DNA from: Alphaproteobacteria bacterium
GTDB lineage: Bacteria; Pseudomonadota; Alphaproteobacteria; Micavibrionales; SZUA-601
Reading direction: 5' to 3'
Assembly (NCBI GenBank): GCA_965216395.1
Contig: OZ244156.1
Location: forward strand, 328,765 to 392,764
DNA length: 64,000 nt
Below the pieces are notes generated by a model, which saw nothing but the letters and a program-made list of their open reading frames with translations, was not told where the DNA came from and did no database searches. Position 1 is the stretch's first letter. Every line of letters begins with the position of its first letter. Both the position numbers and the translations under genes were made by a program. Below, in pieces: positions 9,591 to 59,653 of this stretch.

Positions 9591-10138
9591 TGATCATCTC
9601 CTTCGAATCTATCAAGTAGAAATCTTTGATAATGATATCCCAGTGAATCAATAAATTTTAAAAGATCGGTTGACTTAATCACGGTGCTTTTATCGTTCTT
9701 TAAAGGGTGGAAAACAACATAATCGCCTTTGAACAGATGCTCATCTAAAATGACGTTTAAGGCTTTGTTTGAATCATTGAGAAGCGCAAAAGGCGTAACA
9801 GAACCTGGTGTAACATCTAATAATTCTTGCATTTTTTCAGCTTTCCCAAATGAAAACCGTTTGGTGCCAATTTTCTTTCTTAATCCATTGAGATCAACAC
9901 GTGTATCATCCTTAGCGATCACCAACCAATAATTATCTGATTTATTCGTCAGAAAAAGTGATTTTCCTCCCGTACCGGGAATATCTTTTTTTAAATCTTT
10001 GCCTTCATCGACAGTCATGATGGGTGGATGTTGATAGGTTTCATGATGTATATCTTGTTTGTCAAAATATTTAAAAAGAGCTATTTGACTAGGCGATAAA
10101 TCTTCCTTTTGAATATTTCCTATCTTTATAGCGTGCAT
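9587..10138 (-). CDS. YbaK/ProX-type aminoacyl-tRNA editing (prolyl-tRNA synthetase associated) domain protein
   Basis: ...HETYQHPPIMTVDEGKDL...GGKSLFL... pattern. I prefer ATG 10138, which is preceded by AGGAG, over the TTG at 10171 used by the track. Confidence 0.65.
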   Translation of the reverse strand: MHAIKIGNIQKEDLSPSQIALFKYFDKQDIHHETYQHPPIMTVDEGKDLKKDIPGTGGKSLFLTNKSDNYWLVIAKDDTRVDLNGLRKKIGTKRFSFGKAEKMQELLDVTPGSVTPFALLNDSNKALNVILDEHLFKGDYVVFHPLKNDKSTVIKSTDLLKFIDSLGYHYQRFLLDRFEGDDH

Positions 10139-10231
10139 TTTTTTTAATCTCCTGATTTTTTTATCTTGCAAAGAATCGAATGATCATTATTATACGCATC
10201 CGCATCAGAATTTTAAATCTTTTGTTATGAT

Positions 10232-13402: not shown

Positions 13403-13984
13403 ATGCGTATCGTTTCTGGAAAATTCCGTGGTCGAAAAATTTTTGTGCCTAATACCCATGCAACGCGCCCCACCATGGATCGAACGCGCGAGGCTGTTTT
13501 TAATATGTTGCTTAATGCCCCGTGGGCGCAACAATCCGATGGACGGTCTATTTTAAATGGTGCGGTTGTTTTAGATGTCTTTGCTGGTTCGGGAGCTTAT
13601 GGTTTGGAAGCATTATCGCATCGGGCGAAATGTGTCACATTTCTTGATCATGGTAAAGAAGCCATTCAAGCGATTAAACGAAATATTGAGACGTTTAATG
13701 TTCAAGAAATGACCCGTATTTTACGCCAATCACCACTCAAGATTTCTAATCGTAGAGAAGGGAATGTGGCCGATATTGCTTTCTTTGATCCGCCTTATGG
13801 GGAAGATTTGATTATTCCATCGGTTGAAGCTCTGCACGTTAAAAACTGGATCAACGAAAAAACTTATTTAGTCTTTGAAACTGAATCTAAAAAGAGCGAA
13901 ACTTTACCTGCTAATTTGGAAATTTTTTCACAGCGCGTTTATGGTAAAAGTAAAATATCAATAGGGTATTTGTTAAAAAGTTAA
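13403..13984 (+). CDS. rsmD: 16S rRNA (guanine966-N2)-methyltransferase RsmD
   Basis: MRIVSGKFRGRKIFVPNTHATRPTMDRTREAVFNML, VLDVFAGSGAYGLEALS and the DPPY motif. Confidence 0.85.
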   Translation: MRIVSGKFRGRKIFVPNTHATRPTMDRTREAVFNMLLNAPWAQQSDGRSILNGAVVLDVFAGSGAYGLEALSHRAKCVTFLDHGKEAIQAIKRNIETFNVQEMTRILRQSPLKISNRREGNVADIAFFDPPYGEDLIIPSVEALHVKNWINEKTYLVFETESKKSETLPANLEIFSQRVYGKSKISIGYLLKS

Positions 13985-14709
13985 GCTTTCTTACCAGAGT
14001 TATGACTGCCGCGAACGATGACATTAAGCGCGGCTATAACAGGATCCATGGGTTCTAAGGTTTTTTGCGCATCATCCAGCACCATCTCAACCATGCGAAT
14101 AGCACTGGGTCTTGGCATATCGGCTTCTAAATTGAAATATTCGGGGTCTTGACGCACGGCCGCATATACTTGTGCAATATCACCAGCCAATTTAGAACCA
14201 AATACTGATAATTTTTCAACATTCGCATCAAAGATAGAACGACTGAGCGGGGGGCGTTGATGGATAAAATCGCCCGCCTCTTCATATTGCGCTTTTTTAT
14301 CACTATCACGTAAATTACGGAGCAATTCATTATATATGGTGATGAACGCTTCGCATTTAATTTTATTCTCGGTCAATTCGCCCGCCAATGATGAGGCTAA
14401 AACGGCTTTTTCACGTTTTTGCACCGATTCTTCATTCATCATCATCTGTGAGATGTGTTTTTCTTGATTTTTAGAGATTTTTCTCAAACCCGAGTGGAGG
14501 AATAGCCCCACTAAAAACAAACCAATAATAGGACCGATCAGGCTGGCCAAAGGTGCAAACCACTCATTATTATTCACAAGCCATTGTTTCCATGACATCG
14601 TGTAAGTTGTATTATGAATGGCGTTTGTCAGATCCGGGAGTTGAGCCCATGCCCCTTTTACGCCGATGAATAAAAAGGCTGTTGCGGCACATATAAATTT
14701 TTTAACCAT
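13981..14709 (-). CDS. Hypothetical membrane-associated protein
   Basis: Signal-like N-terminus plus one TM (LIGPIIGLFLVGLFLH). No recognisable domain. Confidence 0.4.
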   Translation of the reverse strand: MVKKFICAATAFLFIGVKGAWAQLPDLTNAIHNTTYTMSWKQWLVNNNEWFAPLASLIGPIIGLFLVGLFLHSGLRKISKNQEKHISQMMMNEESVQKREKAVLASSLAGELTENKIKCEAFITIYNELLRNLRDSDKKAQYEEAGDFIHQRPPLSRSIFDANVEKLSVFGSKLAGDIAQVYAAVRQDPEYFNLEADMPRPSAIRMVEMVLDDAQKTLEPMDPVIAALNVIVRGSHNSGKKA

Positions 14710-14792
14710 AGAAAATCCAATTGATTACTTAATAAAAAATCAGTCTAATATGGATATATTACTGATTTGTTACCGCTTTTGCGACTTAAAAA

Positions 14793-14869
14793 TGGTCGGG
14801 GCGACTAGATTCGAACTAGCGACCTCTTGTACCCAAAACAAGCGCGCTACCAGGCTGCGCCACGCCCCG
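14793..14869 (-). tRNA. tRNA-Pro (anticodon UGG), CCA encoded
   Basis: The reverse complement folds as acceptor CGGGGCG/CGCCCCG, anticodon stem CTTGT/ACAAG with loop TTTGGGT, T-loop TTCGAAT. Confidence 0.9.
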
Positions 14870-14940
14870 ACACTAAGACAACGGTTTTTAACATCTCTTA
14901 GAACAAAAGAAAAGAGAAAATTAAATTCTTTGCATATTTT

Positions 14941-15768
14941 TTAAAGACTATGAGATACGACATAGTCTAAAATTGCGTTGAAACATTTTTGTCTTTTATC
15001 ATCATATTTTTCCAAGATTTCTGCACATTCTTCAAGATGTTTCTGTATAGACTTTATATTCTGATTAAATTTAGATTGATAGACCAGTTTGTTATCGAGT
15101 AAATCACGCCCTGATATTTCATAGTGAAGACTTGTAGATAACATGTGACCATTACCAATCTTTTTTTCAATAACAGCAGGAAAAACTAAGCCTTTACTAT
15201 TTGTCATATATCCTAAAACTTCAACATCTTCTTCTATGTCAATTACGGGGCCGGCATTGTAGACGGCGGGACAGTCCATTTTACTGTGGCCTGGTAAATA
15301 TAGCGATGACTTTAAAACCACCATATGCGAACTTGTTTGCTTTCTTATTGGATCGGTTAGTTTATTAATGGGGCCAGAGGAAGTGGCTGAATATAAACCT
15401 AATGGTTTTAAATGATTATCGGAAATTTTTGTGTTAATTTTTTCGTTTGTAAGATCATTATTAAATATGATCTCTTGCCCTGCCCAATATTTTCCTCTGC
15501 ATATACCTATATATTTTCCTCCATTTTTAATAAAGTCATGGATAAGATCTTGTCCGTTATTTTTGAGTTGTTTTGAGCAATGTTTTGATTCTCCGCCGGA
15601 GATGACAAGTACGCCATCGAAATTTTCTTTTAATATACCGTTCAAAATATCTGACGCGGTAATTTTAAAGTAATTTAGCTTATTTTTTGCAGCATAATTT
15701 TTCAAAGAGTGATCAATTGGATAATCAACAGTGATTTGATCATCAAATAACATGATTGTTTTAGACAT
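14941..15768 (-). CDS. Class-I glutamine-amidotransferase-like / biotin-protein-ligase N-terminal (BPL_N)-like protein
   Basis: VLVISGGES...FIKNGGKYIGICRGKYWAG resembles the BPL_N/GATase1-like GGxYxGxCAGAY segment. The gene is AT-rich. The call rests on pattern memory only. Confidence 0.4.
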   Translation of the reverse strand: MSKTIMLFDDQITVDYPIDHSLKNYAAKNKLNYFKITASDILNGILKENFDGVLVISGGESKHCSKQLKNNGQDLIHDFIKNGGKYIGICRGKYWAGQEIIFNNDLTNEKINTKISDNHLKPLGLYSATSSGPINKLTDPIRKQTSSHMVVLKSSLYLPGHSKMDCPAVYNAGPVIDIEEDVEVLGYMTNSKGLVFPAVIEKKIGNGHMLSTSLHYEISGRDLLDNKLVYQSKFNQNIKSIQKHLEECAEILEKYDDKRQKCFNAILDYVVSHSL

Positions 15769-15805
15769 GAAATTCAGACCCTTAAAACTCTTTAAAAAAG
15801 ATAAA

Positions 15806-16321
15806 TTACGATTTTAGATTGTTTCTTGTTTTCATGATTAAGCGACCAAGATGATTCTGTCCTTGACCTGTTTTAAGGCAAAAACCAAAAAAATTATCAT
15901 TCCAATCATTACCTTCAATCAAAAGAGCATCCTCTTTATTCAACAACATATTTTTTAATTCAAGGTTTTTATCGCTAAATTTTTGTTCAATAAGCATCCC
16001 CATTGCTTGAATACGCAGATTATCTGTTAAATCTTCACGTATTTGAAATTCATTTGTGCGACTAAAATCTTTTGCTTTCCCAGGTTTCATATTCTGAATC
16101 ATTTGCCTTTGTTTAAAAGATGAACTTTTCCATGCTTGATAGGCATTTTCAACAGTTTCAAAGACCATTTCCGGAAGTTCTTTTTTATTGATAATTTCAG
16201 CAGGCAATATCACGTTGCAAGGCCAAAAATTACTAAGAAAACGATTCTCTCCTTGAAACGCCATAACGATATTGAGTTGCTCTTTTTCTTTGCCGTGAAT
16301 AATTGAAACGGATGTATTCAT
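15806..16321 (-). CDS. NADAR (YbiA/DUF1768) family protein
   Basis: FLSNFWPC...F.TVENAYQAWK and a downstream GNDWNDNFFG-like segment match the NADAR pattern. Confidence 0.7.
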   Translation of the reverse strand: MNTSVSIIHGKEKEQLNIVMAFQGENRFLSNFWPCNVILPAEIINKKELPEMVFETVENAYQAWKSSSFKQRQMIQNMKPGKAKDFSRTNEFQIREDLTDNLRIQAMGMLIEQKFSDKNLELKNMLLNKEDALLIEGNDWNDNFFGFCLKTGQGQNHLGRLIMKTRNNLKS

Positions 16322-16330
16322 ATCAAACTC

Positions 16331-17998
16331 TTACGCAATTTTTTTATATTTGATGCGTGTGGGCATGGCTTCAGAACCGGTACGACGCATGCGATCGGCT
16401 TCATAATCTTCGAAGTTTCCTTCGAACCATTCAACATGACTATTGCCTTCAAAGGCCAAGATATGTGTGGCTAAACGATCTAAGAACCAGCGATCATGCG
16501 AAATCACCACGGCGCAACCTGGGAAGGTTTCTAATGCGTCTTCAAGTGCACGCAAAGTATCCACATCTAAGTCATTCGTGGGTTCATCAAGCAGGAGGAC
16601 ATTTGCGCCACTTTTAAGCATTTTGGCCAAATGAACACGGTTGCGCTCACCACCAGAAAGCTGACCCACCACTTTTTGTTGATCACCCCCTTTAAAATTA
16701 AAGGAAGAAACATAGGCGCGCGATTGCACGGATCGTCCGCCGAGATCAATCACTTCTTGTTTGCCCGAAATTTCTTCCCAAACTGTGGCTTTGGGATCCA
16801 AACTATCACGGGATTGATCAATATAGCCCAATTGCACAGTTTCTCCGACCGTAAATGTCCCGCTATCAGGGGTTTCTTCGCCAGTAATCATCCGGAATAA
16901 TGTGGTTTTACCGGCACCATTGGGGCCAATAATCCCGACAATACCCCCACGGGGGAGATTAAAGGACAGGTCATTAATCAGATATTTGTCTCCAAAAGCT
17001 TTGTTGATATTTTCTGCCTTGATGACAAGGTTGCCTAAACGCTCTGGATTAGGGATAACAATTTGCGCACTGCCTTTGGCGCGTTCTTTATTTTGTGCCG
17101 CCAAATTTTCAAAAGCTGTAATACGGGCCTTTGATTTGGCCTGTCTGGCTTTGGGCGATTGACGCACCCATTCCAATTCTTTTGCCAAGGTTTTTTGGCG
17201 GTCACCTTCTTCTTTTTCTTCCTGTTCAAGGCGTTTTTGCTTTTGTTCAAGCCATTTGGTGTAATTGCCTTCGTAAGGAATGCCTTCGCCACGATCCAGC
17301 TCCAAAATCCAACCCGTAACGTTATCAAGGAAGTAACGATCATGGGTAACCATGACAACCGTGCCAGGATAATCGGCTAAGAACCGTTGTAACCATGCTA
17401 CTGATTCGGCGTCCAAATGGTTGGTCGGTTCATCAAGCAGGAGCATATCAGGCTTTGCCAAGAGAAGTTTGGCCAAAGCGACACGGCGCTTTTCACCCCC
17501 TGATAAATTGGTAACGGGCGAATCACCCGGTGGACACCGCAGAGCATCCATCGCAATTTCAGCTGTCCGGTCAATTTCCCATCCGTCCGCGGCATCAATC
17601 GCTTCTTGCAGTTCGGTCATCTCATCCGTTAAACTTTCAAAATCAGCATCAGGCTCGGCCATGGCGGCCGCTACGGCGTTGTAACGCTCCACTTTGGTCT
17701 TAATTTCGCCTAAGGCATCCATGACATTCTCATGAACAGTTTTGCTTTCATCTAATTGGGGCTCTTGTTGCAAATAGCCGATTTTAATCCCATCGGCTGC
17801 CCATGCTTCGCCATCATAGGCTGTATCCACCCCAGCCATAATTTTAAGAAGCGTTGATTTACCCGCACCGTTATGCCCCAAAACGCCAATTTTGGCACCA
17901 GGATAGAAAGAAAGCCAAATATCATTCAAAACCTTTTTTCCACCAGGGTAAGATTTAGATACACCTTTCATTACATATGCATATTGATAGCTTGCCAT
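16331..17998 (-). CDS. ettA: Energy-dependent translational throttle protein EttA (ABC-F ATPase)
   Basis: 555 aa. N-terminus [31 protein letters not shown]. Two ABC cassettes ([18 protein letters not shown]; [16 protein letters not shown]) and no TM domain. Confidence 0.92.
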
Positions 17999-18092
17999 TA
18001 TTTGCCTCTTATCTTAGTATTTTAAAAATAGGATATATAACTTACAGTATATGTGATTGATCTCAACATGAAAACCATAGAAAGTGATAAAA

Positions 18093-18677
18093 ATGGTCCA
18101 AATCATTAAAACAGGTGAGAAGTTTTTTCTTAAAGATATAGCTGGTGGGGACGCCCCCATACTCGCTATTGGTTTGGGGTGGGATAACCGAAAGAAAAAG
18201 GGGCTCATTAATAAGTTCTTGAAAAAGGAATATGAGGTTGATCTCGATCTTTCGTGTGTTGTCTACAATAATGATGATATTCGCATGGATACCGTTTGGT
18301 ATGCACAATTAAATAGTAAAGATGGCGCCATCAAACATTCAGGCGATGATACACTGGGGAAAGAAGGGGGAGATGACGAAAATATCTCCGTTGATTTATT
18401 TAGGTTATCACCCGAAAGTAAAACAATCTTTTTCGCGATTAGTTCCTTTAGCGGCAACCGTCTCAAACGGATCAAAAATTGCTATATGCGTGTTTTTGAT
18501 GCGCGTTCTGGCAAAAATATTCTGCGCTATGATAAAGGCGGCGAAGAAAGCACAGCCAAGGTCATGTTGCGCCTGAAACGCGAAGAGGGCGGCTGGTCAG
18601 TCAAGGCATTGGGTATTGGCTGCAAGGGGCAAAATATCGAAGATGTTTATCCCGTGATGCGGCGTGAGGTTGAATAA
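18093..18677 (+). CDS. TerD-domain stress protein with canonical Ca2+-binding motifs
   Basis: DLDLSCVVY... and HSGDDTLGKEGGDDENISVDL (the GDD/GDDE TerD calcium sites). The track start is GTG 18084. ATG 18093 (MVQIIKTGEKFFL) fits TerD N-termini better. Confidence 0.85.
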   Translation: MVQIIKTGEKFFLKDIAGGDAPILAIGLGWDNRKKKGLINKFLKKEYEVDLDLSCVVYNNDDIRMDTVWYAQLNSKDGAIKHSGDDTLGKEGGDDENISVDLFRLSPESKTIFFAISSFSGNRLKRIKNCYMRVFDARSGKNILRYDKGGEESTAKVMLRLKREEGGWSVKALGIGCKGQNIEDVYPVMRREVE

Positions 18678-18684
18678 TCAATTA

Positions 18685-19323
18685 ATGCCACAAGATAAAA
18701 TAGAAAAAGAGTGCGTTGCCTTACACAATTCTGGTGATTGTCATGTCATTGATATTCCAGAAAATCAGGATTTTGGTCTTATTGGCGCCTTATTAACATG
18801 GACACAACCACCCGCTTCGCCACGTGCCACTGGTTTTTTGGGTCGGATATTGCCTAAAAGAAAAGAAAAAGTTGATTTGGATATTGGGTGTTTGTACGAA
18901 ACGCAATCAGGTACACGTGGCTGTGTTCAAAGTTTGGGTAATCTATTCGGCGCGATTGACCACGAACCCTATATCAAACTCAGTAAAGATGATGTCTCTG
19001 GTGTGAGTATAGGCGAAGAACTTGTTATTAATGGGCATCAATGGTCACAATTTAAACGGATTGTTATTTATGCTTATCTTTATGATGGTGTAACTGCGTG
19101 GGACCAAGTGGATGCGACGATCACAATGCGCGTTCCTCAATCGCCCGTTTTTCAGATCGCGCCCAGCAGTTATGAGCTGGGCAAGGGGATGTGTGCGTTG
19201 GCTGAGCTATCAAATCTGGATGGTCGGATGCAGATTAAAAATCTCACTGAATATTACCCCGGCCATAGTGAGCTTGATTATGCGCATGGATTCGGCCTGC
19301 GCTGGGTGATAAAGGATAAATAA
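18685..19323 (+). CDS. Divergent TerD/TerA-like domain protein
   Basis: VDLDIGCLYETQSGTRGCVQSLGNLFG..., PYIKLSKDDVSG..GEEL and C-terminal EYYPGHSELDYAHGFGLRW. The maximal ORF starts at GTG 18664; ATG 18685 lies 8 nt after the previous stop. Confidence 0.7.
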   Translation: MPQDKIEKECVALHNSGDCHVIDIPENQDFGLIGALLTWTQPPASPRATGFLGRILPKRKEKVDLDIGCLYETQSGTRGCVQSLGNLFGAIDHEPYIKLSKDDVSGVSIGEELVINGHQWSQFKRIVIYAYLYDGVTAWDQVDATITMRVPQSPVFQIAPSSYELGKGMCALAELSNLDGRMQIKNLTEYYPGHSELDYAHGFGLRWVIKDK

Positions 19324-19901
19324 TGAGGAAAGCAATTATTTTACACGGCGTCTGTGACGATCATGAATTTTTTGATGCAGAGACATCACCGTCAAATTCA
19401 CATTTTTATCCTTGGCTGCAAAAGAAATTTTTGTGTTCTGAGATTTTATGTCAAACCCCAGAAATGCCAACGCCATACAATCCAATATACAGGCAATGGG
19501 TTGAAACATTTGAACAGTTTACACTAGATGAAGAAACTATAATCATTGGGCATAGTGGTGGAGCCGGGTTTTTTCTTAAATGGCTACACCAGAATAATCA
19601 TAGGCATTTTAAGAAAGTAGTTTTTATCGCTCCATATCTAGACCCTTTTAAAAAATACGGTAATTTCTTAGAGTTAGAACTCAGCACAAATGTTGGAAAA
19701 CAATTAGATGAGATCCATTTGCTTCATTCAAAAGATGACCCCGTTATTGGTGTTAACGAGACAACAGAAGAAATTTTAAAAACCTATCCTAAGATAAAGT
19801 TTCATGAATACGAAGACAGAAGACATTTTCTTTTTGATGATATCGGTCTAACTTTCCCGGAACTTTGGGATATTGCCAAACCGAAAGAAAATAATCAATG
19901 A
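19323..19901 (+). CDS. YdeN/RBBP9-type serine hydrolase (alpha/beta fold)
   Basis: AIILHG..., nucleophile elbow GHSGGAG, later SKDDPV and RRHF (candidate Asp/His). The start overlaps the previous stop (TAATG). Confidence 0.6.
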   Translation: MRKAIILHGVCDDHEFFDAETSPSNSHFYPWLQKKFLCSEILCQTPEMPTPYNPIYRQWVETFEQFTLDEETIIIGHSGGAGFFLKWLHQNNHRHFKKVVFIAPYLDPFKKYGNFLELELSTNVGKQLDEIHLLHSKDDPVIGVNETTEEILKTYPKIKFHEYEDRRHFLFDDIGLTFPELWDIAKPKENNQ

Positions 19902-20863
19902 TACACCAACTTAATACAACTGAACTTTTTATGCTTTCTATGGGCGCGATGCTCACAGGACTTTATTTGCTTGTTAAAGGGGGTGAGTGGACGGTAGACT
20001 CATCTGTCTACATTGCGCGTAAGATGGGTATTCCAGCCGAATTTATTGGTTTTACGATTATTGCCTTTGGCACATCTCTGCCCGAGCTGATTGTTTCCAT
20101 TAACGCGAATTTAAGCGGTTTTCCAGGCTTATCAATTGGTAATGTTGTGGGATCCAATATTGCCAATATTCTCTTGATTTTTGGTGTTGCCATGGTGTTT
20201 GCGCCCCTTTCTTTTAAATCAAAGCCAGGACAGAGAGATTTGTTGGCGATGTTATTGGCGACATTTTTGCTTATTTTGGCCAATTATCATGGACTCATCG
20301 AACGGTGGCATGGGTTTGCAATGTTTGTTGCGTTGATTATTTATGTTGTTTACAAATTCAAAAGTAACAAAGGTCAAGCCGCACCTGTCGATGATGATGA
20401 AAAAGTTGTTTTTTCGCATCCCATTTTAGGATGGCTTTTCCTTTTAGGCGGTTTGATTGGCGTTTCTCTGGGGTCAGAGTTTTTGGTTCGTGGTGCGGTT
20501 GAAGTGGCAACGGTTTTAAACGTTCCTGAGGCGGTTATTGGCTTAACGATTGTGGCTTTTGGGACGTCTTTGCCTGAATTATCGGTGGCTATCCAAGCAG
20601 CGCGCCATGGACAAAATGATATTTTAATCGGGAATGTTGTGGGGTCGAATGTATTTAATATTCTCTCTATCCTGGGGATCACAGCATTTGTTAAACCCTT
20701 GGTTATTGAAAGCTCAGTTTTGGCGTTTGATATTGGTTTTATGGCGATAATCAGTGTCGCCTTAGTTTTCTTAGCCGTCTTATTTACGAATTTAAACCGA
20801 CGTGTCGGTGTGTTTGCATTGATTATGTATGTAGCTTATGTGGCGTTGCGCTATATTAGTTAA
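19898..20863 (+). CDS. Ca2+/cation antiporter, CaCA family (YrbG-like)
   Basis: Polytopic membrane protein with the duplicated alpha-repeat signature FGTSLPELIVSI / FGTSLPELSVAI and GNVVGSN repeated twice. ATGA overlap with the previous gene. Confidence 0.85.
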   Translation: MIHQLNTTELFMLSMGAMLTGLYLLVKGGEWTVDSSVYIARKMGIPAEFIGFTIIAFGTSLPELIVSINANLSGFPGLSIGNVVGSNIANILLIFGVAMVFAPLSFKSKPGQRDLLAMLLATFLLILANYHGLIERWHGFAMFVALIIYVVYKFKSNKGQAAPVDDDEKVVFSHPILGWLFLLGGLIGVSLGSEFLVRGAVEVATVLNVPEAVIGLTIVAFGTSLPELSVAIQAARHGQNDILIGNVVGSNVFNILSILGITAFVKPLVIESSVLAFDIGFMAIISVALVFLAVLFTNLNRRVGVFALIMYVAYVALRYIS

Positions 20864-20898
20864 TTATTTTTGATTGATCGCGTTTCGTTTATACTCAC

Positions 20899-21414
20899 CT
20901 AGAGCTTACCAGGCGGTTTAATACTGCTTTTATCATTTTTAAGATTACGAGAACTGCCACCGCCGAAATAAGAACTTCCATCGCCTTCTTTTTTCTTACC
21001 GAAACATGACTTATAAATCACATCGAAATCAGGGATCATTCCCTTTTTAATGTGGGAGATACACATTTTAAAAAAACGCGTGCCATTTTCAAACCAATCG
21101 CGCTCAACCCCTGAAAGCACTTTGCCCATGACTTTAAGGTAAATCGGCGAATAGTTTTTCTTTGTGTCTTGTTCGGCGCGTAATAATAAAATTTGTTTGA
21201 ATGATGGTTGATCTTCTTGGTTTTCTTGGCGGATCATCTGAATTTCACAATCAATGAATTTTTCATCCCCAGACATAGAAATACCAGCGGTGAAGTCTGT
21301 CCCTTTTTCAGCGTTGAAATAATCAAAGGGAATCATTTCATAGGCTTCGAGTGTTTCATCAACACCTAATTTTTTTAAAAAATCATCAACAGATAAAGCC
21401 ATAATTGAAACCAT
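20899..21414 (-). CDS. Hypothetical protein
   Basis: 171-aa ORF with a Gly/Ser/Lys-rich tail and no recognisable domain. An alternative start is at 21402 (MALSV...). Confidence 0.4.
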   Translation of the reverse strand: MVSIMALSVDDFLKKLGVDETLEAYEMIPFDYFNAEKGTDFTAGISMSGDEKFIDCEIQMIRQENQEDQPSFKQILLLRAEQDTKKNYSPIYLKVMGKVLSGVERDWFENGTRFFKMCISHIKKGMIPDFDVIYKSCFGKKKEGDGSSYFGGGSSRNLKNDKSSIKPPGKL

Positions 21415-21487
21415 AGCGTATCTTTTTCTATTTTTCTATGTTAATTTTTGCTTTGAAATTGAAACTGTCTAAAGGATTAAGTGAACC

Positions 21488-21982
21488 ATGAAACTTGTTG
21501 ATATTGTTGCTGTACTCAAAGAAGCAGAAACTCTTTCTTTTACTTTCCTCGATGGCCGTCAGGTTCCATCTCATTTCCATGTAACGGAAGTAGGCAAAAT
21601 ATCTAAGAAATTTATTGATTGTGGCGGTACAATTCGTCAAGAAAGCCGCATCAATTTTCAACTTTGGGATGCGGATGATTATGATCACCGTTTACACCCT
21701 GAGAAATTACTCAAGATCATCACATTGTCACAAGAAAAATTGCAAATCGACGATCAATTAGAGGTCGAGGTTGAATATCAAGATGAAACCATTGGTAAAT
21801 ATGATCTCTCCTATGATCAGGGGCATTTTGTCCTAATTCCACAAAGAACTGATTGTTTGGCCAAGGATAAATGCGGTATTGACCAAAACCCACTATCAAT
21901 GCCGATTAAAGTCGTTAGATCTAAAACACCAGCGGATCAAAAACAATCATCTTGTTGTTCTTCTGATTCCAATTGTTGTTAA
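21488..21982 (+). CDS. DUF6428-like protein with Cys-rich C-terminal tail
   Basis: VPSHFHVTEVGKISKKFIDCGG...QLWDADD resembles the DUF6428 family seen in arsenic-type loci. The C-terminus is SSCCSSDSNCC. Confidence 0.5.
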   Translation: MKLVDIVAVLKEAETLSFTFLDGRQVPSHFHVTEVGKISKKFIDCGGTIRQESRINFQLWDADDYDHRLHPEKLLKIITLSQEKLQIDDQLEVEVEYQDETIGKYDLSYDQGHFVLIPQRTDCLAKDKCGIDQNPLSMPIKVVRSKTPADQKQSSCCSSDSNCC

Positions 21983-22014
21983 TCTTTTAATTTGTTTTGG
22001 AGGATAAAAAAAGA

Positions 22015-22040
22015 CTGGGTGTGGGGCCCAGCCTTTTTCT
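22015..22040 (+). terminator. Weak candidate terminator after the DUF6428-like gene
   Basis: CTGGG-N7-CCCAG hairpin followed by CCTTTTTCT. The stem is only 5 bp. Confidence 0.3.
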
Positions 22041-22199
22041 ACCATTGCTTCCTCCATGTGTGTGTGGAGTGTGTGTCGGGGAAGAAGCAGATCTGTTGCT
22101 ATAATAATTGCAAAGACCGTGCCAAAATAATATTTCATTGATTTTATTTATTCTTCTACGGTTTTGTTTTACAATATAATCACAATTTAAGGAGAAAAT

Positions 22200-22937
22200 A
22201 TGGTGGAAACAAAATTTATTCTCGATACCGATGATGGCCATAAAATTCATGGTGTTTTGAATAAGGCAAAAGGGAAAAAGAATAAGAAAGCAGTCCTTTT
22301 TATTCATGGTCTGCCAGCTAATTGTCGTAGATATGTTCCTTCACTAATGGCACATAGCTTTCCTCAAAAAGGTTATGATATTATTCGTATTGACCTTTAT
22401 AGTTCAAGTTTGGGTGGGCGTAGTATCGTAGATGTAACATTAAAAATTCATGGTCAAGATATAGATACGGTAATAACTCATTTTTCTAAAAATTACGATA
22501 AAATATTTGGTTTGGGTCACAGCTATGGTGGGCCATCTTTAATACTGTCTGATCAAACCAAATTTACAGCTTTTTCGTTGTGGGACCCTACATACCGACC
22601 TTCTATTATTACAAAGCATTATAAGAAGCATGGAAAATTATTCATCTCAACCCGCGGTAGTGGGGCTGTAATAGGTCAATCTCTTTATAACGAAGCAAAA
22701 GATATGGATGAAAATTGGGCTAGAAAGCAATCTAATCAGGTTAAATGCCCTATACAGGTTATATATGCAGGACATAAGGATAACTCTTTTTGGGTGAATG
22801 AGGGCGAATCTTTCCATACCTATGCTTCCACCAAAACCGATGAAAAAATCATAAGAAAGGCTAGTCACTCATTTTATGAGGAAGGCGCATCAGAGATTTT
22901 GTTCAAACACACGCTGAACTGGTTTAATCAATTTTAA
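22200..22937 (+). CDS. Alpha/beta-fold hydrolase
   Basis: AVLFIHGL..., nucleophile elbow GHSYGG and a C-terminal ...ASHSF (candidate His). Confidence 0.6.
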   Translation: MVETKFILDTDDGHKIHGVLNKAKGKKNKKAVLFIHGLPANCRRYVPSLMAHSFPQKGYDIIRIDLYSSSLGGRSIVDVTLKIHGQDIDTVITHFSKNYDKIFGLGHSYGGPSLILSDQTKFTAFSLWDPTYRPSIITKHYKKHGKLFISTRGSGAVIGQSLYNEAKDMDENWARKQSNQVKCPIQVIYAGHKDNSFWVNEGESFHTYASTKTDEKIIRKASHSFYEEGASEILFKHTLNWFNQF

Positions 22938-23601
22938 AGTTTGTGGCGTTTATATCTGCTAATTCTTGTGTCGGCGTTGATAGTTTAAAAAGAGCATTTT
23001 TGTCACCACTAAACTGCAACCAAAGGGTTTTACTCGTTTGTTGCGTGTAGATCGTTCCAAAAGAAAAACTTTCAATATCCGTTATATGGTGCTTCATATC
23101 TCGGTATTTTTGCATATATTCGGATGGTTTTTGGTCTCTAAAAATTTTATCAAGTGGGGGAAATGCATAGCCTTGATAAGTTTTTTGGTTATTATCATTA
23201 ATATAAAAATCAAAGTCTCTATTTGCCTTAAATTTCTTTATTAACAGCGCATGACACTCTTTATCATAGGTTAATTCATACTCTATTTTATTTTGATTGT
23301 TTGGATCAAATTTGATGCCCCTCTTAAAGCGCCCAGTTTTATCAAATTCCCTTCTATAAATAACGGACCCTGTTTTATCAAATTGATCTTCTTGGGCGTA
23401 ATGGCTTTGTGCGTTATATAGACATCTTAGTAAGATAAGTTTATTAGTATTGGTATATATTTTTTCGTATTGTAGTCTTCCACTTGGAAAAAATGTTTTC
23501 TTGGATACCAAAGAATCCGGCTGTCGGTCGGCTCCGTTTAAATTCTGGTCTATATTCTGCAATAGTAAATTAATATCAGACACAATTTTGCTCTCCATCA
23601 T
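22924..23601 (-). CDS. Hypothetical protein
   Basis: 225-aa AT-rich ORF with no recognisable domain. It overlaps the convergent hydrolase gene by 14 nt. Confidence 0.4.
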   Translation of the reverse strand: MMESKIVSDINLLLQNIDQNLNGADRQPDSLVSKKTFFPSGRLQYEKIYTNTNKLILLRCLYNAQSHYAQEDQFDKTGSVIYRREFDKTGRFKRGIKFDPNNQNKIEYELTYDKECHALLIKKFKANRDFDFYINDNNQKTYQGYAFPPLDKIFRDQKPSEYMQKYRDMKHHITDIESFSFGTIYTQQTSKTLWLQFSGDKNALFKLSTPTQELADINATNFKID

Positions 23602-23910
23602 CTTATTTAAGACTATAAAGAGAATTTAAATTATGTCAATGGTGTTTGATTAAAGCTCTGATGCTTTAATAAGAAGAAAAAAGAATGCTGTGGCAAAGCC
23701 GACAAGAAATAAAAAGACCAAGCTTACGGAGGTAACGATTTCTAAAAGCATGATAAAAATACCTTATAATTTTTAATATTTAAAAGTTAGAAAAAAGCTT
23801 TGATGAGGGGATTTATAACGCTCAAATGAGCGGTTTGCAACCATAAAATAATAAAATTTTATTTTTTATATTATTGTTATTTATCAATAGGTTGATTATG
23901 TTTTTGTAAC

Positions 23911-23946
23911 AAAAAAATGATCCAAATTATTTAAATATTTGGATCA
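23911..23946 (-). terminator. Rho-independent terminator of clpX
   Basis: TGATCCAAAT...ATTTGGATCA hairpin (23918-23946). On the minus strand a T run follows it (plus-strand A run 23911-23917). Confidence 0.6.
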
Positions 23947-23980
23947 TTTTATAATTTTAATTTTCACTTAAAAATCTGTG

Positions 23981-25258
23981 TTATTTTTCTTTGCTCGCAA
24001 CTTTCTTTTTCGGTTTTTCAGTCTTTGCTTTAACAAATTTTGGCTTAGCGCCATCGGTTACACATTTTTTATCAAATATGACCTTTGTGACATCGTTCAT
24101 GCCGGGTAAATCATACATAGTTTCAAGCAGAAGACTTTCTAAAATGGAGCGTAATCCCCGGGCACCTGTTTTACGTTCCACGGCTTTATCGGCAATCGCA
24201 TGGAGAGCATCTTCAGTAAACTCTAGCTCAGCATCTTCCATTTCAAAAAGTGCGGCATATTGTTTCGTGAGGGCGTTTTTTGGTTCCGTTAAGATTTGCA
24301 CCAACGCGTCATGATCAAGATCTTCTAATGTCGCGATCACAGGTGTGCGACCAATAAATTCAGGGATTAAGCCGAATTTAACAAGATCCTCTGGTTGTAC
24401 TTCAGCCAAAACTTCACCAATGCGTCTGGCTTCTGGATCTTGGACATCTGCGCCGAAACCGATAGAGGTACCTTTATTACGTTCCGCAATAATTTTATCA
24501 AGCCCAGCGAAAGCGCCACCACAAATAAATAAGACATTGGTTGTGTCGACTTGTAAAAATTCTTGCTGTGGATGTTTGCGCCCGCCCTGCGGTGGTACAG
24601 AGGCCACTGTGCCTTCCATGAGTTTTAAGAGTGCCTGCTGCACCCCTTCGCCCGAAACGTCACGGGTAATGGATGGATTATCGCCTTTGCGACTAATTTT
24701 ATCGATTTCATCGATATAAACGATCCCCTTTTGCGCCGCTTCGACATTGTAATCACAGGCTTGTAAAAGCTTAAGCACAATATTTTCAACATCTTCACCA
24801 ACATATCCCGCTTCGGTCAAGGTGGTCGCATCTGCCATAGTAAAGGGAACGTCTAAAATACGCGCCAGTGTTTGTGCCAAGAGCGTTTTACCGCAACCTG
24901 TTGGCCCTAAAAGTAAGATATTCGATTTTGCTAATTCAATATCAGACGTACCAGAAGACTTGTGTTCCATGCGTTTGTAGTGGTTGTGAACCGCCACAGA
25001 CATAATCCGTTTTGCACGTGCTTGGCCAATCACATATTGATTGAGAAAATCATTGATCTCTTGCGGTGTGGCCACCGTTCCTGATTTGACCAACTCTGTC
25101 TTTTCTTCTTCGCGAATAATATCATTACACAGCTCAACACATTCATTACAGATGAATACGTTAGGGCCGGCGATTAATTTACGCACTTCGTGCTGGCTTT
25201 TCCCGCAGAAAGAACAGTAAAGGGTATTTTTCTCGTCTTTATCGTCTGATTTACTCAT
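23981..25258 (-). CDS. clpX: ATP-dependent Clp protease ATP-binding subunit ClpX
   Basis: Zinc-binding [11 protein letters not shown]...CNEC, Walker A GPTGCGKT and Walker [10 protein letters not shown]. The start is taken at MSKSDDKD (25258). The track ORF extends 10 codons further, to 25288. Confidence 0.95.
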
Positions 25259-25425
25259 TTTATCCTTATCCCATGATTGGGGAATCATTTGGTTTATTTC
25301 TTACTACTATCAAATCCTATCTTAGTAAAAGGGGCGTTAATTTTTTATTGTTTTACACGAATTTGATATCCTACTATAACTTGACTCCGATGAATGACAA
25401 GAGAATAAATACAGTGGTATCTAAA

Positions 25426-52918: not shown

Positions 52919-53821
52919 TTATCTCAAATGATTATCAAACATAAAGAAATACCATTTATTTTCTAATATTCTAACACACCCGTACTTTGAATTATTAGAA
53001 AGAAATTCAGCAAAGTAGTCTTCCAAACTAATTTGTTTATTTTTAAGATTGATTTCGATATCTTCATCTAACACAAACCACTTTTTTTCTTTTAAATAAT
53101 TAATCATCAAACTCCTATCTTCTCTCATTTCATCGAATTCTTTTGAAAAGTATTCCAATTCATTTGCTAATACTAATCTAACTTTTTTTAATTCATTTAG
53201 ATAATTTGAATGTGGATAAATACTATGAGCTATGAATAAATTTAAGAGATGTTTCTTACTAACTTTATAGTTATTAATAGGGTCTTTTATTAAAACTTTT
53301 TCATCTGTAACCTTATAAATTTTTTGAGAATATTTTGACTTACTGGTTAACTCCTTTTTTAAATAGCCAAAAAATTGATTTTCGTCAGGATAAATATCAA
53401 TTAGCCTATCTATACGCTCAACTGCGGAAAAGTACTCCGCGCTTTTTAAGTCTTTAGATATTTTAGAATATATATGCTTTTTGTGAGCATCTTCAATGTG
53501 AGTATAATGAAAATATCTAGCTCTTAAAATATTCCTGAAATTATTATAATTGACTAAAGTAAATATTAAAACCAAGATTAATAAAATTCGTTTGTATTTG
53601 TAATTAGTTAACTTTTGTTTTAGAACATCTAACTTATAAAATATTAACCCTAACACAAATAGTAAGATCAATTCAGGAATTGCATTTTTTAATACTGTAA
53701 TTATAAAATCATAATTGTTACTCTTAATAGCATCTGGGGCTAAAGCTTGAATTACTAATAATAAACCAGAAATAAATGAGAATAAAATACCTGCACGCTT
53801 AATTACAATATCAAAATTCAT
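52919..53821 (-). CDS. Hypothetical protein, 3 N-terminal TM segments plus a soluble domain of about 200 aa (island cargo)
   Basis: 300 aa. TM candidates are GILFSFISGLLLVIQALA, IPELILLFVLGLIFY and ILLILVLIFTLV. The rest is Y/K/N/F-rich with no motif I recognise. The DNA is very AT-rich. Confidence 0.5.
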   Translation of the reverse strand: MNFDIVIKRAGILFSFISGLLLVIQALAPDAIKSNNYDFIITVLKNAIPELILLFVLGLIFYKLDVLKQKLTNYKYKRILLILVLIFTLVNYNNFRNILRARYFHYTHIEDAHKKHIYSKISKDLKSAEYFSAVERIDRLIDIYPDENQFFGYLKKELTSKSKYSQKIYKVTDEKVLIKDPINNYKVSKKHLLNLFIAHSIYPHSNYLNELKKVRLVLANELEYFSKEFDEMREDRSLMINYLKEKKWFVLDEDIEINLKNKQISLEDYFAEFLSNNSKYGCVRILENKWYFFMFDNHLR

Positions 53822-53825
53822 AATT

Positions 53826-54941
53826 TCAAAATTTTATTTTATCTATTGTTTTTGTAATATCTCTGCTATTATCTTTTATCGAATTGTCTGTATCATTAAA
53901 ATAAGCTTTAGGCGGATTTTTCAAAAAATCAATATAATGTTTGATATCTGTTGATAAATTAGAATTTTTTGTTTTGTTTAAAATCAATGTAAGTTGTTTA
54001 ATCCTAATATTTTTATTCTTTAACTTTCCATTGTGACAGTCCCAAAATAGGCATCTAGCTAGCAAATGCATATTTAACTGTTTAAGAAATTTATTATTTT
54101 TGTTAACGCTATTTACTTTTTTAAATACAGTGAAAGCATCTTCTATTTTATTTTCTTTTAGCAAAGAAACTCCTTTTAAATACAAGGAGATTGGATAAAA
54201 TTTAGATTTTTCTGTTATTTCTATTTTATCAATATTCCTTTTAGATATTATTTTATAACCGTTATTATATTCAAAAATATCTAGTATTTGTTCTCCATCT
54301 TTAAAATGGGTATCAAAATATTCTTGATTTTCTAGAATACATTTTAAAATCATACATTCATCAACAGTGTGTAATCTTCTTAAGGGATCAGTATCATCGA
54401 GTAAAATCCTATCAAAAGCTTTATTAATAAACCATTTTGCTCTTGAAAATTGATGTACTCTTATCAAATTCCAAGCTGGTCTTAAATAAAAATTTCTTAT
54501 ATATCTCTCAAAATCTATGAAATTAGATGTAAATAATTCATAATCAGAAACTATATAATTAAGGATTTTTTCTTCGGCATCATACTCAGCCTTTGACAAT
54601 AAAAAAGACGTCATTTCAAAAATATCACTGAATTTATTCTTTTCATAAAACCTCTCAAGCTCTGGAAACTTTTTTCTAATCTTTAAAACCTCATCGGGTT
54701 CAATAAAATTCTGCTCATATAAGTAGTAATCATTCTCCTCTAAATAGTATGCTATCGAGCTAAAACCTAAATCATTTCTGAAGTATTTTGGTCTTTGTAT
54801 TGAGTAGCTTAAATTTTCAAGGTTTTCACTTCGTAAATAATCTATAAGCTTTTTCAAGACATTATCTGAAATATAGAATACACCATAAAGTGCAATGAAA
54901 ATGGGAATTACTTTTTTAAGTAATAAATTAGAATATTTCAT
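53826..54941 (-). CDS. Hypothetical protein, N-terminal membrane anchor plus a soluble, partly TPR-like domain (island cargo)
   Basis: 371 aa with anchor VIPIFIALYGVFYI. The C-terminal third is helical-repeat-like (ISLYLKGVSLLKENKIEDAFTVFKKV). A 4-nt gap separates it from the downstream gene. Confidence 0.5.
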   Translation of the reverse strand: MKYSNLLLKKVIPIFIALYGVFYISDNVLKKLIDYLRSENLENLSYSIQRPKYFRNDLGFSSIAYYLEENDYYLYEQNFIEPDEVLKIRKKFPELERFYEKNKFSDIFEMTSFLLSKAEYDAEEKILNYIVSDYELFTSNFIDFERYIRNFYLRPAWNLIRVHQFSRAKWFINKAFDRILLDDTDPLRRLHTVDECMILKCILENQEYFDTHFKDGEQILDIFEYNNGYKIISKRNIDKIEITEKSKFYPISLYLKGVSLLKENKIEDAFTVFKKVNSVNKNNKFLKQLNMHLLARCLFWDCHNGKLKNKNIRIKQLTLILNKTKNSNLSTDIKHYIDFLKNPPKAYFNDTDNSIKDNSRDITKTIDKIKF

Positions 54942-57952: not shown

Positions 57953-59653
57953 CTATTTTATGTTCTTCTCAATTTCTAGAACATCGAATATTTTTTTAAG
58001 AGGGTATTTATCTTTATTATTAGGATAAATATTGCTAACATAACGTTCAAATGGTAAATTCATTTTAGCCATATCATTCTCATCGTATTTTTTATTGAAT
58101 TTTCTTTCAAAACGCTTCAAATATTGAAAATAACCATCCGCTAGTTCTCTTATATCAAAATGTGGCAGTTGATGAATTTTTTCTATTAAAAAAGATATGT
58201 TCATGAAAAGTAAATTCTCTATCTTTTTAAAAGTATTAGTCAAATCTTTCTCTAAGTTTAATCTTGCTTTGAATTCACCATTCAGATAACGATTAACTCC
58301 TGGCATACTAAAGAAATTATCTGTATAGATTATTATTGGATATATTATAAGATTTCTTTGCTTCAACTTTAATTCTTTATAGCTTTTGTCCTCAAATGGC
58401 TTATCCATAAGTTTTTTTAATTGCTTAACAATCTGTCCTGTTCCTTTTGATTTTGTATTATATTTGGTATCGATGGCACTTTTAATTTTTTCATAATCTA
58501 AAGAATTAATTGCCTTAGCAGGAAAATAGGCATCTTTGATTTCGAAAAGAAAAATAAATTTCCCAAATCTGTAATATGCATCGGGGAAACCATCATTTTT
58601 GTAATCATCAAATTTTAAGATTGAATGTTTCTTATTCAAATAATGAGAAAGGACTTTTTTAAAAATATGATCTTCAGTTACTTCTTGACCTAAAAAATTT
58701 TTAAAATCCGGAAAATTTTTAAATTTTGGATTATCAGCAATTCCGGAGCTTGCATAAAAATCAAAAACTAATCCCTCATAAGTTTTATTAATAATAAAAT
58801 TCCAATTAAAGACAAAAAACTTATTCGGTTGTATTTCAATTAAAGGTGATTGTTTTAGACCATTGAAATTCTTTTTATCTTTTACATACTCTTTTTGATA
58901 TTCATCAAGTTTTAAAGTGAAATTTTCGAGTATTCTCTCTGTAATATCTCCTTTTTTGATTACAAAGGGTGTTGAGTCTTTATCTGAAATATCTTTTGAC
59001 CAACTCGCTTGCAATGTATTTGTTATTGTCATTATATAATGCCAATAACTTTCTTTTTGATTATATCTCGTAAATGCATCAACATAGCCGTCAAATTCTG
59101 GATGTTTTTTTAGAACATTAAAAAACACAAGCGAGCGAATAAGATTATGCATTGGTCTAATATGATGATTAACCTCATATTGATCTATAAAAGTAGGCCA
59201 TGTTTTTACTTGAAAAAATTCGCCATTATCGTCATTTGAATTAAATGAATGCTCATATCTTTTATTTATCGTACTGGTAATTACTAAATATGCTTTAAAA
59301 AAATTCAATTCTTGTTCTGGTGTAGTGTCTACAATTGAAAAATCACGATAATTTATTAATTCATAATGAATGAATTCTAAGCTATATCTAATACTAAAAA
59401 TATCAACTCTTTGTTCAGTTTCATATTTTGAAAGTCGATCTAAAATTCGATTTCTTAAAACACTATCAAATCGTCTAGAAATTAAATCAAAAAGTTTTCT
59501 TTGAGTTGCTCTTTTACCCAAAAACAACTCAGCATTAATAAGGCAAAGCATACTAAGTGTCACATTCGATGGAATATCTTTTAGTAAATCTGTTAATTTT
59601 GGTATCTCATCATCGAAAATATCTGAGTAGGTAGGTGTAATAATAAATTCCAA
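57953..59653 (-). CDS. Hypothetical protein with C-terminal PD-(D/E)xK nuclease-like motif (island cargo)
   Basis: 566 aa. Residues 355-373 read GFPD-AYYRFGKFIFLF-EIK (D358/E371/K373, nt 58535-58582), followed by GQIVKQL. The N-terminal 340 aa or so are unassigned. Confidence 0.55.
   Translation of the reverse strand: MEFIITPTYSDIFDDEIPKLTDLLKDIPSNVTLSMLCLINAELFLGKRATQRKLFDLISRRFDSVLRNRILDRLSKYETEQRVDIFSIRYSLEFIHYELINYRDFSIVDTTPEQELNFFKAYLVITSTINKRYEHSFNSNDDNGEFFQVKTWPTFIDQYEVNHHIRPMHNLIRSLVFFNVLKKHPEFDGYVDAFTRYNQKESYWHYIMTITNTLQASWSKDISDKDSTPFVIKKGDITERILENFTLKLDEYQKEYVKDKKNFNGLKQSPLIEIQPNKFFVFNWNFIINKTYEGLVFDFYASSGIADNPKFKNFPDFKNFLGQEVTEDHIFKKVLSHYLNKKHSILKFDDYKNDGFPDAYYRFGKFIFLFEIKDAYFPAKAINSLDYEKIKSAIDTKYNTKSKGTGQIVKQLKKLMDKPFEDKSYKELKLKQRNLIIYPIIIYTDNFFSMPGVNRYLNGEFKARLNLEKDLTNTFKKIENLLFMNISFLIEKIHQLPHFDIRELADGYFQYLKRFERKFNKKYDENDMAKMNLPFERYVSNIYPNNKDKYPLKKIFDVLEIEKNIK

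Follow-up and report, generated by a model that had tools for sequence, protein, structure and literature searches.

A 64-kb window of alphaproteobacterial contig OZ244156.1 (the window is the whole stretch of DNA analysed, and positions are counted from its first letter) contains four co-directional open reading frames (ORFs) on the plus strand, read from the ORF list at 18084–20863. They encode a TerZ-like protein of the TerD family (gene 1), a second protein with a TerD fold (gene 2), a serine hydrolase (gene 3) and a putative CaCA-family Ca2+/Na+ antiporter (gene 4). We consider this locus here as a candidate Ca2+-handling operon, in which a pair of TerD-fold genes accompanies the gene of a cation exchanger. 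The genes and the features around them are listed in Table 1.

Table 1. The candidate operon and its surroundings in the 64-kb window
Feature	Position	Strand	Description
tRNA	14796–14869	-	Rfam
BPL_N-like gene	14941–15768		
NADAR gene	15806–16321		
ettA (ABC-F)	16331–17998	-	Divergent upstream neighbour; synteny marker, outside the proposed module
Sigma-70-like promoter candidate, TTGCCA-17-TAGTAT	17992–18020	+	Consensus scan; weak, 9/12 positions
Gene 1	18093–18677	+	TerZ-like TerD-family protein, 194 aa; Pfam TerD
Gene 2	18685–19323	+	Standalone TerA-C-terminal-domain-like protein, TerD fold, 212 aa
Gene 3	19323–19901	+	YdeN/RBBP9-type alpha/beta serine hydrolase, 192 aa; accessory, lineage-specific
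Gene 4	19898–20863	+	Putative YrbG/NCX-type CaCA Ca2+/Na+ antiporter, 321 aa; two GTSLPEL alpha-repeats
Gene 5	20899–21414	-	Convergent 171-aa protein, family unassigned; recurrent syntenic neighbour

A preliminary description of this DNA had noted four plus-strand genes in tight file, with a TAATG overlap at 19321–19325 and an ATGA overlap at 19898–19901, and all of this reads as described: the TAA of gene 2 (19321–19323) shares a base with the ATG of gene 3 (19323–19325), and ATGA joins genes 3 and 4. Two details required correction. The gap after gene 1, given as 8 nt, is 7 nt in the sequence (TAA at 18675–18677, next ATG at 18685), and an in-frame GTG at 18664 is an alternative start for gene 2 that would overlap gene 1. 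The start given for gene 1, 18084, is an upstream in-frame GTG; the ATG at 18093 is likelier, because the resulting 194-aa form is present in public collections and aligns flush with its homologues. Genes that share 1 or 4 nt at their start and stop codons are a frequent sight in bacterial operons, and the two overlaps, although compatible with co-transcription, are unremarkable by themselves.

Between the divergent ettA and gene 1 lie 94 nt of intergenic DNA that are partly conserved in two close relatives (L001 and L002; comparison loci are cited by L numbers), and the number of promoter-like matches within this stretch is close to shuffle expectation. A pattern scan of the operon gave no convincing internal terminator, with promoter and terminator counts too near background to place the ends of a transcript. 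The only Rfam matches in the window are three tRNAs; no riboswitch or other regulatory RNA turned up in or near the operon.

Gene 1 is assigned to the TerD family by Pfam (PF02342: 103.5 bits, E 1.2e-29, cut-off 25.3, model positions 5–179 of 187), and its family profile matches the solved TerD structures 3ibz (E 7e-42) and 2kxt (E 3e-36). The closest Klebsiella Ter protein is TerZ (34% identity, 103 bits), followed by TerE (82 bits) and TerD (67 bits). Its acidic motifs are VDLDLS and GDDTLGKEGGDDE. The canonical TerD Ca2+ motif, reportedly given by Pan et al. in 2011 as the 13-mer GDN(R/L)TG(E/A)GDGDDE, is identical to GDDTLGKEGGDDE at 7 of 13 positions; Gly stands where GDGDDE has its first Asp, and the final DDE is retained. 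The string SGDDTLGKEGGDDE, quoted for gene 1 in the preliminary description, is present in the translation, but the statement that both canonical Ca2+ sites are kept was too strong, given the 7/13 identity and the lost Asp. We infer that gene 1 retains most of the predicted Ca2+ ligands.

Gene 2 has no match in Pfam or NCBIfam, even at E ≤ 1, and its relatives score 24.7–24.8 bits against Pfam TerD, just under the cut-off of 25.3. It does align with residues 195–378 of annotated Klebsiella TerA (33% identity over 188 residues, E 1e-40). A word-indexed search with gene 2 returned only five 90% clusters; an exhaustive profile search with the gene 2 family returned 566 representative clusters at 50% identity. 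Many of these representatives are about 400 aa long, with a Pfam TerD domain at the N-terminus and a gene 2-type domain at the C-terminus, and one protein found through the same profile (P0012, 385 aa) aligns over its full length with terA as annotated on Enterobacteriaceae plasmids. Gene 2 lacks this two-domain build. At 212 aa, against about 385 aa, it corresponds to the C-terminal domain of TerA alone, and we therefore call it TerA-C-like rather than a TerA orthologue.

Comparison of profiles and structures places this domain within the TerD fold. Alignment of the gene 2 family with the TerD family by hhalign gave a probability of 95.9% (E 6.5e-9) and spanned the DLD and GDD motifs. An AlphaFold2 model of gene 2 built on a 50-sequence alignment reached a predicted local distance difference test score (pLDDT) of 91.3, and Foldseek listed Klebsiella TerD 2kxt (E 3.7e-6) and Streptomyces TerD 3ibz (E 1.5e-5) among its top three matches, both with probability 1.00. 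The top match, 9a6r_B ('GLPD-SCP2'), is presumably B. subtilis YceC, a member of the TerD family; the entry did not turn up in a sequence-based search of the PDB. PDB searches with the gene 2 sequence and with its family profile yielded noise only, and BLASTP of gene 1 against gene 2 is marginal (E 0.015 over 34 residues). An earlier model from a 5-sequence alignment (pLDDT 66, with a Foldseek list that was mostly noise) was replaced. On the alignments and the model together, gene 2 is a TerD-fold protein equivalent to the TerA C-terminal domain standing alone. This domain is thereby defined as a TerD-fold family in its own right, one that escapes the current models of Pfam and NCBIfam.

Gene 4 matches Pfam Na_Ca_ex (PF01699) in two stretches (223.5 bits, 1.5e-66) and lies above the cut-off of TIGR00367, calcium/sodium antiporter (234.5 against 179.65 bits). 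GTSLPEL occurs twice, at residues 58 and 222, and residues 12–316 align with residues 3–297 of NCX_Mj (E 5e-40), an alignment that preserves both copies of GTSLPE and of the GS...N/D motif; position D240 of NCX_Mj aligns with an Asn. By family, gene 4 is a putative Ca2+/Na+ antiporter of the YrbG/NCX branch of the CaCA exchangers. Its central loop, read from the translation, has only about 25 residues, which leaves it without the regulatory domains that eukaryotic NCX carries within its own chain.

Gene 3 exceeds the cut-off of Pfam Ser_hydrolase (PF06821; 29.9 bits against 22) and matches YdeN 1uxo (E 4.5e-10) and RBBP9 (E 8e-5). On YdeN its GHSGG, SKDD and RRHF lie over AHSLG, SKDD and GGHF, and we take the aligned Ser, Asp and His, in view of the fold, to be the catalytic residues. 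It is the same fold family as B. subtilis YdeN and human RBBP9, with aligned triad positions, although very divergent, as the 29.9 bits against Pfam show. The families named in the preliminary description – a divergent TerD/TerA-like paralogue for gene 2, a YdeN/RBBP9-type hydrolase with GHSGG for gene 3 and a CaCA exchanger with duplicated GTSLPEL for gene 4 – thus agree with the TerA alignment, hhalign and Foldseek, with the motif and PF06821, and with Pfam and TIGR00367, respectively.

The arrangement is not peculiar to this genome. In the close relatives L001 and L002, at about 70% protein identity, the same genes are found with abutting or overlapping junctions. L001 shows the full order, ettA divergent, then TerD, the gene 2 relative, hydrolase and CaCA, then gene 5 convergent; L002 is the same minus the hydrolase. 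Gene 1-like TerD genes at 42–50% identity stand alone beside ettA in L007–L010, and in L008 and L009, the loci whose downstream flank was covered, a gene 5 homologue directly follows the lone TerZ-like gene.

A metagenome scan with the gene 2 family gave 80 loci, of which 42 encode fused TerA-like proteins (33 assessable, that is, with enough downstream flank) and 38 a standalone gene 2 relative (32 assessable). A CaCA gene lies directly downstream on the same strand, at a spacing of 29–167 nt, in 10 of the 32 assessable standalone loci (L019, L026, L027, L044, L047, L049, L052, L071, L075 and L077) and in 0 of the 33 assessable fused ones. All ten of these distant loci have in addition a canonical TerD/TerE-like gene after the CaCA gene, 3–37 nt further on, with a HAD gene between the two in L077. 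Full-length copies of this TerD/TerE-like gene score 160–218 bits against Pfam TerD, and the GDNRTGAGDGDDE-type motif was caught by pattern search in three of them (L019, L026, L077). In all, gene 4 orthologues follow gene 2 relatives in 12 further loci.

Gene order and flanks vary between these groups. The distant loci read gene 2 relative, CaCA, TerD, against TerZ-like, gene 2, (hydrolase), CaCA in the window and its close relatives. An ettA gene lies upstream in L019, L049, L052 and L071 and about 1.5 kb off in L044, and other genes take its place in L026/L027, L047, L075 and L077, the last two being also without gene 5. Identity between the window clade and the other loci falls to 34–40% for gene 2 and 42–46% for the CaCA protein, and pairwise identities of the two proteins co-vary (Pearson r 0.87). 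In a neighbour-joining tree the CaCA-linked gene 2 relatives form one clade together with those of L031, L081 and L072, which have no CaCA gene; L077 falls outside. We read this pattern as a TerD-fold/CaCA partnership that has been maintained for a long time, mostly by vertical descent in one broad lineage, with occasional losses and a few independent origins at most.

Adjacency beyond this genome, which the preliminary description had proposed to survey, is thus found both in the close relatives and in distant lineages with different flanks and order. Its compact unit of TerD pair, hydrolase and exporter holds in part: the TerD-fold pair and the CaCA gene recur, and the hydrolase is confined to the window and L001. 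As judged from these neighbourhoods, the recurring conserved unit is two TerD-fold genes plus one CaCA gene.

Among the nearest known relatives of this unit is the classical terZABCDE(F) operon on IncHI plasmids of Klebsiella and E. coli (L091), in which a TerZ-like protein and a TerA-related protein are likewise followed by a polytopic membrane cation-transport protein, and in which the TerD-fold proteins carry DxD and GDD acidic loops. The window differs in that it has no TerB, an unrelated exchanger of the NCX/YrbG type stands in place of TerC, the TerA relative consists of the C-terminal domain (212 aa against 383–385 aa), and genes for TerD/TerE, vWA/TerY, ATP-grasp, PRTase, HpcH and StiP are missing. 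The plasmid operon differs also in setting, the window locus being chromosomal, beside ettA in an AT-rich genome (its public sequence is on a 1.65-Mb contig).

In tblastn searches of the whole 64-kb window, Klebsiella TerB and TerC gave no match at E ≤ 1, and vWA/TerY, ATP-grasp, PRTase, HpcH, StiP and HAD queries gave only short chance-level matches (E ≥ 0.009). The absence of the usual Ter partners asserted in the preliminary description therefore holds for TerB, TerC, vWA, ATP-grasp and PRTase (TelA lay outside the queries). Because TerB and TerC are absent and gene 2 is without the N-terminal domain of TerA, the predicted module is related to the classical Ter system but does not qualify as one.

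The ten distant cassettes are another likeness, with the same three families on one strand, separated by short gaps and often lying between ettA and a gene 5 homologue, and with a gene 2 relative of the window's own clade in all but L077. They differ in that the TerD partner is canonical and TerD/TerE-like (GDNRTGAGDGDDE), where the window has a TerZ-like protein, and in having no YdeN-type hydrolase. We found no description of a TerD-CaCA neighbourhood in the searchable full-text literature, although the main comparative-genomics paper on Ter may mention one.

Passages of PMC8123226 state that ever since ter operons were first described it has been unclear what Ter proteins do biochemically; they also cite Ca2+ binding by Klebsiella TerD (Pan 2011, cited in PMC8123226) and an effect of a Streptomyces TerD-domain protein on Ca2+ homeostasis (Daigle 2015, cited in PMC8123226). 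These two, Tdd8 of Streptomyces coelicolor (SCO2368) and Klebsiella TerD, are TerD-domain proteins for which those passages report Ca2+ binding or an influence on Ca2+ homeostasis (PMC8123226), and nothing found in the full-text literature searched describes either as encoded with a Ca2+ exchanger. TerC-family proteins are described, in the passages of PMC12096827 consulted, as metal-transport membrane proteins with roles in Mn2+ transport and metalation.

Our preferred interpretation, to which we would give a probability of about 0.55, is that the locus is one operon for a compact Ca2+-handling module, combining an NCX/YrbG-type exchanger with two soluble TerD-fold beta-sandwich proteins. The TerD-fold proteins would bind cytosolic Ca2+ through their DxD and GDD...(D)E acidic loops and, as sensors or buffers, would adjust the exchanger or deliver Ca2+ to it; gene 4 would extrude Ca2+ against a Na+ (or H+) gradient, in the position that the metal-transport membrane protein TerC holds in classical terZABCDE operons. 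The YdeN-type hydrolase would be a co-expressed late insertion outside the core mechanism. We infer a role for the module in Ca2+ sensing, buffering or regulated efflux.

Several observations weigh against this interpretation. Most CaCA-linked gene 2 relatives belong to one clade, with L077 as the sole outlier, so that vertical descent in a single proteobacterial lineage could account for much of the conservation. Gene 2 and TerD relatives occur without CaCA in L031, L081 and L072, and the TerZ-like gene stands alone by ettA in L007–L010; since related loci lack CaCA or keep the TerZ-like gene alone, the partnership is dispensable. The predicted Ca2+ motif of gene 2 is degenerate in the window clade, where the GDDE acidic cluster is missing and D64, D66, D102, D103 and E111 are kept; the distant CaCA-linked relatives keep a near-canonical SGDERTGDAEGDDE motif with the GDDE cluster, and are extended at the N-terminus by about 45 conserved residues. 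Gene 2 of the window clade may bind Ca2+ more weakly or serve as an adaptor. E. coli yrbG is not known to have a clear Ca2+ phenotype. Finally, the functional reading as a whole, contact of the TerD-fold proteins with the exchanger included, is a prediction from sequence.

The kinship with Ter raises a different possibility, which we regard as unlikely: a reduced Ter-type stress or defence module in place of a housekeeping unit for Ca2+ homeostasis. It would respond, like classical ter operons, to envelope damage, phage, oxidants or tellurite, and the CaCA protein would stand in for TerC as the membrane effector or would reset a Ca2+ signal. TerZ and TerA are the best matches of genes 1 and 2, which stand in terZ-terA order, a Nocardioides relative of gene 2 lies inside a classical Ter biosynthetic cluster, and the HAD hydrolase within the L077 cassette belongs to a family that is a usual partner in Ter clusters. 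However, TerB, TerC, vWA and biosynthetic genes are all missing from the window, and PADLOC gave no match for any of the proteins of genes 1–5. Nor does the setting resemble an island, being a conserved chromosomal site beside the housekeeping gene ettA, and the composition of genes 1, 2 and 4 is that of core genes.

We give still less credence to inherited synteny without functional coupling, with the genes kept as neighbours at an old ettA-gene 5 locus by phylogenetic inertia. The single clade of most CaCA-linked gene 2 relatives would fit such inertia, as would the persistence of ettA and gene 5 nearby in many loci and the absence of CaCA, gene 2 or TerD from some related loci. Yet the trio is kept where the flanks differ (L026/L027, L047, L075, L077), across the change of order from TerD-gene 2-CaCA to gene 2-CaCA-TerD and across a local inversion, and the genes are always co-stranded with short or overlapping junctions at divergences down to 32–46% identity. 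A hydrolase has even been inserted with the frame-tight junctions unbroken.

Transport of another divalent cation (Mn2+, Cd2+, Sr2+) or metalation of exported proteins, with the TerD-fold proteins as metal chaperones, seems very improbable: TerC-family proteins, the usual TerD partners, act in Mn2+ transport and metalation according to the passages of PMC12096827 consulted, and TerD acidic loops could presumably bind other hard cations, but gene 4 carries the NCX/YrbG GTSLPE signature, can be aligned from end to end with NCX_Mj, a Na+/Ca2+ exchanger, and exceeds the TIGR00367 cut-off for calcium/sodium antiporters, and the metal reported on TerD in the cited passages of PMC8123226 is Ca2+.

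The interpretation as a Ca2+-handling module can be carried further by analogy with the eukaryotic exchanger NCX1, which also joins an NCX-type exchanger to two Ca2+-binding beta-sandwich modules. In NCX1 these modules, CBD1 and CBD2, act as allosteric regulators. They belong to the Calx-beta family and lie in cis, in the large loop between transmembrane segments 5 and 6, whereas the putative sensors of the window are separate proteins of the TerD family; NCX1 matched gene 4 weakly, and the likeness is an analogy only. In its boldest form, which we offer as doubtful speculation, TerD-fold proteins would be trans-acting Ca2+-sensing regulatory subunits of prokaryotic NCX-type exchangers, a split and non-homologous counterpart of CBD1/CBD2. 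In classical ter operons TerZ, TerA, TerD and TerE, which have long lacked an explanation, would then gate or feed the divalent-cation transporter TerC in response to cytosolic Ca2+.

The three-gene cassette, which joins two TerD-fold proteins to a Ca2+ exchanger of a well-understood type, would be a minimal system in which to ask if proteins of this fold act as Ca2+ sensors or buffers and govern the efflux of cations. It consists of three small genes, where classical ter clusters bring along ten or more accessory ones. The pairing itself will not surprise a specialist aware of Ca2+ binding by TerD; what it provides is a clean, minimal and conserved handle on Ter function.

The hydrolase requires separate treatment. 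A homologue of gene 3 accompanies the module only in the window and in L001, at 55% identity compared to 68–76% for the other three genes, and it is missing from L002 and from all ten distant CaCA-linked loci; a homologue search returned gene 3 itself only, and among 5.8 billion proteins there is no close homologue besides the L001 copy. We therefore rejected the hydrolase as a core component, and its phyletic pattern indicates a late, lineage-specific insertion. The PF06821 family is not known to be linked with Ca2+ transport or with Ter proteins. The L077 cassette has recruited a small hydrolase of an unrelated kind, as its gene between CaCA and TerD (9595–10182) belongs to the HAD family (PF12710, 7.7e-25).

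The preliminary description had taken differences in base composition between the terD genes, the hydrolase and the surrounding DNA as a sign of mosaic assembly. The differences are real but modest: GC is 0.431 for gene 1, 0.437 for gene 2, 0.351 for gene 3 (third-position GC, GC3, 0.285) and 0.414 for gene 4, against an ORF mean of 0.382 with a standard deviation of 0.048. All values for genes 1–4 lie within about one standard deviation of the ORF mean, with one exception: no gene of the window has a higher GC3 than gene 1. Gene 3 resembles the window's less conserved genes in GC, and genes 1, 2 and 4 (0.41–0.44) resemble core genes such as ettA and clpX. With deviations of this size composition alone is no proof of horizontal mosaicism, and we rejected it as such. 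The comparative data do point to insertion of the hydrolase and to a mixing of the TerZ-like gene with the gene 2-CaCA pair. The operon of the window clade may have arisen by differential loss from a four-gene ancestor or by recombination.

The upstream neighbour is presumptively named EttA on the basis of the Pfam pattern ABC_tran-ABC_tran_Xtn-ABC_tran, found in its orthologues in L001 and L002. It lies divergently beside TerD-type genes in L001, L002, L007–L009, L019, L031, L049, L052, L071 and L081, at about 1.5 kb in L044, and as a partial copy in L010. Gene 5, on the other side, has no match in Pfam, NCBIfam or PADLOC. Its homologues occur near the TerD/CaCA module in 11 loci, distant ones included, in variable orientation and at variable distance, and gene 5 may either mark the synteny or be a partner of the module that has escaped notice.

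Over the part of the window compared (13981–25288), the block from ettA through genes 1–4 to gene 5 is intact and inverted with respect to its flanks, relative to L001 and L002. The ettA side of the block holds clpX and another alpha/beta hydrolase gene in those two loci, and the gene 5 side a 242-aa protein followed further out by two genes that match Pfam Cons_hypoth95 and S4-PseudoU_synth_2; the window has these sides reversed. Between the 242-aa gene and ettA the window has an AT-rich stretch (14796–16321, gene GC 0.32–0.33) that contains the tRNA and the BPL_N-like and NADAR genes of Table 1. The latter two genes have no counterpart in the compared stretches of L001 and L002, and the whole stretch may be an insertion next to the tRNA. 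On the far side of gene 5, a DUF6428 protein (21488–21982, 1.7e-57) with a Cys-rich tail, SSCCSSDSNCC, is also without a counterpart in the compared stretches of the two relatives. Further away, three long minus-strand ORFs at 52919–54941 and 57953–59653 have a GC of 0.25–0.27 and a GC3 of 0.19–0.21, against a mean of 0.38, and may be a horizontally acquired or surface-polysaccharide-type region.

Variants of the two TerD-fold families were also seen elsewhere. Unusually long TerD genes of 380–409 aa occur in L019 (9768–10997), L049 (9753–10982), L052 (9829–11016) and L072 (1152–2294), each with an N-terminal extension of about 200 residues without a Pfam match, followed by a canonical TerD domain. 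The long gene follows CaCA in the TARA loci L019, L049 and L052 and directly follows the gene 2 relative in L072. The next gene downstream in the TARA loci is YceI-like, as shown in L019 and as suggested by family clustering in L049 and L052.

In L005 (7161–12140, Nocardioides caeni) a gene 2 relative with a Pro-rich N-terminus lies between a canonical TerD gene and genes for C-C_Bond_Lyase and PRTase_2-TRSP-StiP-PELOTA proteins, so that the standalone TerA-C-like domain also occurs inside classical Ter biosynthetic clusters. In L004 (7569–8591, Sporomusa sp. KB1) a TerA-C-like domain stands behind a hydrophobic leader, as judged by eye, and a domain resembling the LPP20 lipoprotein; next to this fusion comes another LPP20-like protein, and no TerD gene is nearby. 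The leader and the LPP20 fusion therefore suggest an extracytoplasmic version of the TerA-C-like domain.

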